Assembly: GCA_951406725.2 (NCBI GenBank)
Contig: OX597821.1
Location: 110,112,001 to 110,176,000, forward strand
Reading direction: 5' to 3'
Origin: Octopus vulgaris
Lineage: Eukaryota
DNA length: 64,000 nt
In this document: piece after piece, positions 29,150 to 30,345 of the stretch
Position numbering within the stretch: position 1 is the stretch's first letter
Layout of the letters: each line of letters starts with the position of its first letter
Translations under genes and position numbers: made by a program
Notes under the pieces: model-generated
Seen by the model: the letters and a program-made list of their open reading frames with translations, nothing else
The model's database searches: none
Told to the model about the DNA's origin: nothing

Positions 29150-30344
29150 GTATATTGGCAGGGCTGGCCTGCTAGGTAGCCGGCCAGAATGCTAGAAGAT
29201 CATCAACGATCAAACTACAAGGGAAATTCTCTAGAGGAAGAATTCAGCGAACACCAGAACCAAATTTGGCGGCCAGGACATATGAAAAATTAAATAAAAA
29301 ACAGACTTAAATGCATACCTCGGTTTCGGTCTTAACAAAAGAATTACTTGCATAATTCAAGTGTCCGTGACTTCATCAGTACATTTGGTCCTCGAGATGC
29401 AAACCGCAAGACTAACCCCAGCTTTCTGTGTCAAGACAGACACGTGCTTAGTCTTACTGATTACATCGGGAATAAAATTTCAAATGTCTTGGTTCTGGCG
29501 CGCTGAGAGACTCCTGAAGCGAAGGGCTGCAGTGAATAATTCACTGCGGGTAATGCTTACAACTAGGGAACGTATTTATTTAAATATTTAAAAATTGAGG
29601 GAGATAAATTAATATTAATTTTAATATCAATTTAAAACCAGTAGTCCAGCATTCAAAAAATCTGAGGAGTCAGAGAAAATTCAAATATATGTGTATATTG
29701 GCAGGGCTGGCCTGCTAGGTAGCCGGCCAGAATGCTAGAAGAAGATCATCAACGATCAAACTACAAGGGAAATTCTCTAGAGGAAGAATTCAGCGAACAC
29801 CAGAACCAAATTTGGCGGGCAGGACATATGAAAAATTAAATAAAAAACAGACTTAAATGCATACCTCGGTTTCGGTCTTAACAAAAGAATTACTTGCATA
29901 ATTCAAGTGTCCGTGACTCCCGATGTAATCAGTAAGACTAAGCACGTGTCTGTCTTGACACAGAAAGCTGGGGTTAGTCTTGCGGTTTGCATCTCGAGGA
30001 CCAAATGTACTTATGAAGTCACGGACACTTGAATTATGCAAGTAATTCTTTTGTTAAGACCGAAACCGAGGTATGCATTTAAGTCTGTTTTTTATTTAAT
30101 TTTTCATATGTCCTGCCCGCCAAATTTGGTTCTGGTGTTCGCTGAATTCTTCCTCTAGAGAATTTCCCTTGTAGTTTGATCGTTGATGATCTTCTTCTAG
30201 CATTCTGGCCGGCTACCTAGCAGGCCAGCCCTGCCAATATACACATATATTTGAATTTTCTCTGACTCCTCAGATTTTTTGAATGCTGGACTACTGGTTT
30301 TAAATTGATATTAAAATTAATATTAATTTATCTCCCTCAATTTT

Positions 30345-30345
<1 letters not shown>
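29150..30345 (-). mobile_element. Non-coding HHR-bearing element: 543-bp unit, partial tandem copy and inverted segment
   Basis: 29151 repeats at 29694. Segment 29919-30345 is the reverse complement and crosses the tandem junction. Both ends are flanked by (TA)n. Confidence 0.8.
29309..29386 (-). ncRNA. Type I hammerhead with 7-bp stem I, inside a 543-bp repeat unit
   Basis: AAATGTA-CTGATGA-aGTC...GACc-GAAA-cc-ga-ggt-A-TGCATTT. The inverted copy at 30003-30080 has a mutated core (CTTATGA). Confidence 0.75.

Follow-up and report, generated by a model that had tools for sequence, protein, structure and literature searches.

How did a 543-nt sequence with a hammerhead motif come to lie in the Octopus vulgaris genome as a partial tandem repeat joined to an inverted copy of itself, and what kind of RNA was its template? 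The locus lies in a 64,000-nt stretch of contig OX597821.1 (the window). A first-pass annotation had described a unit of 543 nt, followed by a 225-nt partial repeat and then by an inverted arm running across the unit junction, and blastn within the window confirmed this layout. Positions 29142-29372 recur at 29685-29918 with 97.9% identity, 29918-30250 is the inverse of 29471-29142 (98.2%), and unit positions 423-543 return inverted at 30242-30362, so that the inverted arm crosses the tandem junction unbroken. The annotated unit length holds for this copy and not for the family, whose period is 546 nt, the difference being a 3-nt deletion at the locus. The features are given below by window coordinates and strand, with the basis of each in brackets.

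29033..29150, no strand: (TA)n microsatellite, left end (sequence; outer 3' ends of the family)
29142..29918, minus strand: arm A, 777 nt or 1.42 units, 5' end at unit position 322, 3' end at fixed site A (blastn, arm mapping)
29151..29693, minus strand: full unit, 543 nt, non-coding, highly structured (period, folding, ORF scan)
29309..29386, minus strand: intact minimal type I hammerhead (motif scan, covariation, constrained fold)
29573..29597, minus strand: internal copy of site B, AT-rich, read through by arm A (arm mapping)
29685..29697, minus strand: internal copy of site A, the 'unit junction' of the first-pass annotation (sequence)
29855..29918, minus strand: truncated hammerhead, without the core and the 5' strand of stem I (sequence; 5' end at unit position 322)
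29918..29918, no strand: head-to-head (5'-to-5') arm joint, 1-nt overlap (arm mapping)
29918..30345, plus strand: arm B, ~430 nt or 0.8 unit, from a 5' end at unit position 223 through site A to a 3' end at fixed site B (blastn, arm mapping)
30003..30080, plus strand: hammerhead of arm B, core changed to CTTATGA, predicted inactive (sequence; general core requirement)
30346..30460, no strand: (TA)n, then (TATG)n, right end (sequence)

The (TA)n at 29033..29150 is the likely target and was possibly lengthened by stutter. On both flanks (28892-29040 and 30460-30655) older repeats point into the same (TA)n (71% inverted match), as if several elements had used the microsatellite as a landing site. 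One stretch of the left flank, 28892-28940, resembles a degenerate hammerhead whose core reads CCGATGA; the window copy folds poorly, and a better-paired relative is found elsewhere in the genome (L197:3531). Other long inverted or rearranged repeats in the window, at 39401-40274, 48205-48974, 21021-21584 and 36019-37394, are possibly further head-to-head insertions of the type made by Penelope-like elements (PLEs).

The repeat family and its hammerhead motif

A search of the 2.8-Gb genome with the unit returned 1323 candidates, 40 of which were scored, and an exact 25-mer from the hammerhead occurs 331 times. We mapped 102 loci, comprising the 40 from the unit search (biased to long copies), 10 further loci and 52 new ones among the first 100 of the 331 exact matches. 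Copies differ from the majority sequence by 1.4%. The earlier statement that the unit has no ORF was borne out, ATG frames read round the unit spanning at most 40 aa on the strand of the hammerhead and at most 64 aa on its complement. Terminal repeats other than the unit itself are absent from the mapped loci, there is no LTR, and the few PLE protein matches inside unit loci are all separate from the arms; the reading frame for reverse transcriptase (RT) and GIY-YIG is not in the unit. Two older relatives, ~88% and 65-80% identical, both retain the hammerhead and both ends and are non-coding in the loci seen, with a PLE match in 0 of 30 loci of the oldest. Dozens of other loci share the architecture of the present one with different breakpoints and flanks. 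On these comparisons we regard the locus as a real insertion of a young, non-coding, non-LTR retrozyme family that bears a Penelope insertion footprint. The first-pass annotation had named the retrozyme, and that identity stands; it had overlooked the footprint and the rule, described below, that one arm ends at A and the other at B. Both the unit and the tandem junction are covered by contigs from presumed RNA runs, although they cannot show the kind, strand, ends or circularity of the molecule.

The hammerhead was found by motif scan on the minus strand of the window, with its core at 29379-29373, GUA, and a predicted cut at 29316|29315. It consists of a 7-bp stem I, CUGAUGA, a long stem II with a basal A.C pair, GAAA, a stem III of 2-3 bp and GUA; numbering and core requirements are those in general use for hammerheads. 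One hammerhead per unit had been annotated, and the motif is indeed present on the minus strand, but only one of the three at the locus is intact: the partial repeat stops just past the core, and the inverted arm has CTTATGA for CTGATGA. The scan gave 2 matches in the 64 kb against 1 in total over 20 shuffles of the window; the second match, at 1214-1291, is hammerhead-like and belongs to a different family. An Rfam search did not find the hammerhead at gathering score nor at E <= 10, and its miRNA matches were dismissed as TA-repeat noise. Folding of the unit gave z = -5.3, and forcing the hammerhead fold onto a circular monomer cost ~2 kcal/mol in a constrained fold. Among 24 hammerheads of three age classes, chosen by core pattern so that core invariance is by construction, stem I was paired in 96.9% of 161 cells, with changes on both sides at four of its seven pairs, the covarying cells being inherited from few events. 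Stem II GTC/GAC is replaced by GCC/GGC in the sister family, and N7 is the variable core position. Within the young family the core was not measurably more conserved (5/1162 changes against 251/45315 elsewhere). The ribozyme may be weak owing to the basal A.C pair of stem II and the short stem III. A by-eye look for Pol III boxes and an antisense ribozyme yielded nothing convincing.

Within the unit, a double change of GCG to TCA at positions 287-289 (window 29407-29405, minus strand) recurs in 15 of 147 passes, on every haplotype background and usually in one unit per insertion; in the 88% sister family most copies carry TCA (5 of the 7 shown). A brief template switch is a candidate cause, since the result equals a 5-nt stretch across the same hairpin. 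Private substitutions are strand-biased on the hammerhead strand (C>A 32, G>T 9; p = 0.0008, one of six pairs tested), which may mark RT or a single-stranded step. No signature of A-to-I editing was seen (A>G 26, T>C 55).

Two fixed 3' ends and head-to-head arms

Read on the hammerhead strand, the arms begin at variable 5' positions, and most of their 3' ends fall at one of two fixed TA-like sites, A and, ~105 nt downstream of it, B. The 103 insertions divide into 69 head-to-head, 31 single-armed and 3 other cases; none is tail to tail. The head-to-head class comprises 50 A+B insertions (49 without the duplicate L125), 15 B+other, 3 A+other and 1 other+other; A+A and B+B do not occur, and 65 of the 69 have exactly one B end. 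Among 65 loci ordered by position, 32 of 44 two-armed insertions were A+B, again with no A+A and no B+B. Single arms end at A in 15 cases, at B in 15 and elsewhere in one; given this split, an independent choice of end would yield all-A+B with a probability of ~0.5 to the power 49. The present locus is of the A+B type, and its two outer ends both enter (TA)n, as 154 of 169 outer 3' ends enter (TA/CA)n across the family. Most arm joints have an overlap of 0-6 nt, and the 5' end of single-arm copies usually abuts TA-rich DNA. In 20 of 61 simple two-armed cases, the locus included, each arm has sequence that the other lacks, and fold-back copying is thereby excluded for them. Moreover, 58 of 61 B arms continue through site A. 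Arms reach 3.9 units in length, exceeding one unit in 32 and two units in 4 of the 65 position-ordered loci, and 36 of 182 arm pieces span at least two hammerhead sites. At least two consecutive complete hammerheads, the mark of an active element in 10.64898/2026.07.22.740005, are found in the family (L037, L140); the locus, with one intact hammerhead only, falls below this.

These counts bear on the circular or multimeric template that had been proposed as expected for a retrozyme. The proposal had leaned on the inverted arm crossing an end-to-start junction at 29693/29694; this position does no more than mark the phase imposed by priming site A, and that argument is lost. What survives is the proposal itself, now resting on the pieces that span two or more sites, on the 3.9-unit arm and on the single haplotype per insertion. 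It had also been suggested to ask whether copies are circular permutations of one another. Random permutation is ruled out, variation being confined to the 5' ends while the 3' ends keep to two sites. This goes part of the way towards the refuting outcome named in the first-pass annotation, in which all copies would share fixed linear ends. Fixed 3' ends do not in themselves refute a circle, because the RT of a PLE starts internally at fixed sites (PMC11167929).

Several smaller patterns were seen at the arm ends. Arm 5' ends cluster at unit positions 272-278 (13 of 182 pieces, a post hoc count), 13-15 nt upstream of the GCG to TCA change, probably reflecting an RT stop in the long hairpin. 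Family-wide, the CA/TA run of site A is often shortened, altered or expanded to (CA)n ahead of the (TA)n. The appearance is that of stutter as reverse transcription begins; target sequence could give it too. Whole insertions have also been copied: in the oldest family an entire A+B insertion is duplicated in inverted orientation (L231/L233), and L124 and L125 have identical breakpoints and are probably a segmental duplication.

The template of the two arms

Diagnostic variants were compared between arms after leaving out L125 and arms below 95.5% identity. Across 40 loci, 284 of 287 diagnostic cells carry the same state in both arms; over 2000 shuffles the agreement was 64% (78% at most). Full concordance was seen in 37 of the 40 loci, against 18% when shuffled, in a family of more than ten haplotypes. 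Discordant cells were few (L033, L062, L067 and L140). Units of the same arm diverge by 0.78%, the figure rising to 0.85-1.0% across arms and to 2.57% from locus to locus. At multiply covered sites there were 211 rare variants, 29 of them in all copies, 178 in one and 4 in some; 21 of the 29 are fixed across differing unit registers. A linear multimer should leave variants present only in both same-register copies. This signature was observed once, where 10.5, 5.2 or 2.6 would be expected if the sources held all, half or a quarter of the present private load (p = 0.0003, 0.03 and 0.26), so that the test, from which L038 was also dropped, loses its force at fourfold homogeneity. An apparent excess of variants in untwinned units proved to be an artefact of L038, a single misaligned fold-back locus. 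At the hammerhead site there were 183 read-throughs and 5 stops, and no indel in ~99 passes at loci not selected by hammerhead pattern. Taken together, arm concordance, divergence, rare variants, the register test and read-through without indels point to one template per insertion and to a one-monomer bottleneck, most simply a ligated circle. Gene conversion between the inverted arms could also have homogenised the copies.

In LINE-1 twin priming, both target strands prime on one RNA and give a head-to-head inversion with a microhomology joint, the first cDNA stopping near the second priming site. The octopus arms differ in that B arms run through site A, as counted above, and the same sequence is copied twice. 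We hold it very probable that twin priming by a PLE on one RNA produced the insertions. The fuller reading that we favour, with rather less assurance, is a non-autonomous retrozyme mobilised by PLEs and twin-primed on one RNA that was probably a monomeric circle. Transcripts of tandem copies, made in the hammerhead sense, would be cleaved by the ribozyme and closed into circles by ligation. A PLE protein would then cut both strands of a (TA)n tract, as the footprint suggests, whereupon cDNA would start at site B from one cut 3' end, and from the other at A, which lies ~105 nt upstream, or at a TA-like site close by. In the genomic DNA both arms run 5'-ward past each other's start and past hammerhead sites, for up to 3.9 units and with variable stops, and their 5' ends are joined head to head, mostly with the short overlaps given above.

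The same twin priming might instead have used an uncut linear multimer, transcribed from a young homogeneous tandem copy and holding A and B in one protein-bound segment, with no circle involved. We think this unlikely, while giving it serious weight. The A+B rule is no guide here, as it fits a linear two-site template as well as a circle and does not require the latter. The 183 read-throughs against 5 stops and the short arms, with more than two units in only 4 of 65 loci, count in its favour, and insertion in vitro persists with hammerhead mutants in PMC11167929. However, the 21 rare variants fixed across registers demand a one-monomer bottleneck somewhere, the register signature was seen once against 10.5 expected, and 5' truncation combined with internal priming would be expected to shrink arrays in every round. 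That the PLE dimer carries two separate RNAs, one per arm, strikes us as improbable. A predicted dimer with extension of both strands is described in PMC11167929, and one arm is not contained in the other in 20 of the 61 simple cases, but with more than ten haplotypes in circulation the full concordance of 37 of 40 loci leaves this viable only if one source dominates each cell.

A little less credible again is the copying of linear, ribozyme-cut monomers with repeated end-to-start template jumps. Five arm 5' ends lie at 376-382 and two substitutions fall at the first base past the cut, yet five stops at the cut are not significant (p = 0.09), and the site was passed ~99 times with no indel, in contrast to the visible imprecision of the 3' starts at A and B. 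We give the least credence to a process at the DNA level (fold-back, break repair at TA repeats or unequal crossing over) or an assembly artefact. In its favour are the instability of TA repeats and palindromes and a hairpin fold-back at the joint of two loci (L038 and L106). The joint at 29918 also has no independent read support; no contig from four further runs spans it, a result uninformative either way as contigs break in repeats. Such a process is hard to square with the strict polarity (69 head to head against none tail to tail, 3' ends fixed and 5' ends variable), with the 20 of 61 cases, this locus among them, in which one arm is no copy of the other, or with the strand bias of C>A over G>T.

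Penelope-like elements and known retrozymes

Many elements with RT and GIY-YIG are present in the Octopus vulgaris genome. In one coding PLE (L200), perfect 766-bp arms stand head to head and a hammerhead-like motif is present; its two ends, each lying in (TA)n, differ by a tail of 26-30 nt. The retrozyme footprint thus matches that of a coding PLE of the same genome. The family to which it belongs (L200:2821-5983, L202 and L128) shares the head-to-head layout and the 26-30 nt tail in (TA)n, its hammerhead-like motif reading CCGAAGA or CTGAAGA, and would be the first candidate partner. Among 39 GIY-YIG loci, which were drawn from the 150 candidates scored out of 6136 and dominated by one family, none had a PLE with sequence similarity to the unit. 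When ten PLE 3' regions were compared with the unit, scores did not exceed those of shuffles save for an AT-rich 33-nt match in L199 (30 against 27). A young family (L188-L191) has many intact 781-aa RT + GIY-YIG frames, a possible upstream frame and, in two of four loci, direct terminal repeats of 456-504 bp; it was rejected as partner on account of these repeats, a 3' region without a hammerhead by scan and no similarity to the unit. The tail motif beside another GIY-YIG match (L212) is a separate insertion and not a partner. The window itself holds a fragment of a PLE GIY-YIG domain at 33322-33627 (minus strand, 38% identity). Elsewhere, another hammerhead family with a similar long stem II forms a head-to-head insertion between (TA)n runs (L192:4425-4909).

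The biochemistry of PLEs is described in PMC11167929, which states that the protein, a predicted dimer, cuts AT-rich DNA on both strands and extends both, that RT starts at two internal sites bounding a genomic 'tail', and that these sites show no homology to the target and no strand difference. In the same account hammerhead cleavage is dispensable, uncut RNA being the main substrate and hammerhead mutants still inserting in vitro, which speaks against the circle. Inverted, 5'-truncated PLE copies, with a tail often at one end only, are described in PMC8557442. The octopus insertions resemble PLEs as portrayed in these two sources in their 5' truncation, partial tandems, inverted adjacent copy and one-ended extension, and in having two internal RT starts, AT-rich or (TA)n targets and a hammerhead upstream of the starts. 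They differ in lacking an ORF, in an A-B 'tail' of ~105 nt instead of 30-40, in start sites that resemble the target repeat and in never using the same site for two arms. Among non-autonomous PLE derivatives, Chlamys MRC1 likewise forms multicopy head-to-tail insertions; according to PMC8557442, Chlamys lacks canonical hammerheads and has 3' ends resembling autonomous partners, whereas no such octopus partner was found in the 39 loci.

Metazoan non-LTR retrozymes offer the other comparison (PMC7229834; 10.64898/2026.07.22.740005). Shared features are non-coding tandem units with one type I hammerhead each, a GC content below 50%, strong self-pairing and many dispersed copies. PLEs as mobilisers and circle-templated tandem cDNA have been proposed there for animal retrozymes. 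The octopus unit of 546 nt is above the 150-450 bp of PMC7229834 and within the 51-972 bp of 10.64898/2026.07.22.740005. It is unlike the metazoan elements in its minimal PLE-type hammerhead and its short arrays (at most 3.9 units), mostly in head-to-head pairs, and two fixed 3' ends in (TA)n are absent from the descriptions available in either source. A pLTR homologue is given for 24 of 57 Xenopus families in 10.64898/2026.07.22.740005, against none for the octopus unit in the 39 GIY-YIG loci; cleavage in vitro is given there for only 1 of 9 Xenopus elements, a further point against the circle. We found no report of the A+B rule or of a cephalopod retrozyme in the literature searched, with subscription papers and bioRxiv supplements outside the search.

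With hundreds of copies 98% identical, several haplotypes and starts 105 nt apart, the family turns the A+B rule and the use of one template per insertion into evidence that can be counted, and the unit is a small substrate on which circular and linear templates could be compared in vitro. The formation of tandem, inverted and tailed PLE insertions is called undefined in PMC8557442. As a tentative proposal, a PLE may prime its two cut strands at different fixed sites of one circular RNA, with both cDNAs rolling round it and stutter at the start sites perhaps writing (CA)n or (TA)n in a telomerase-like manner. If true, that reaction would explain the partial tandems, inverted copies and one-sided tail of PLEs together.
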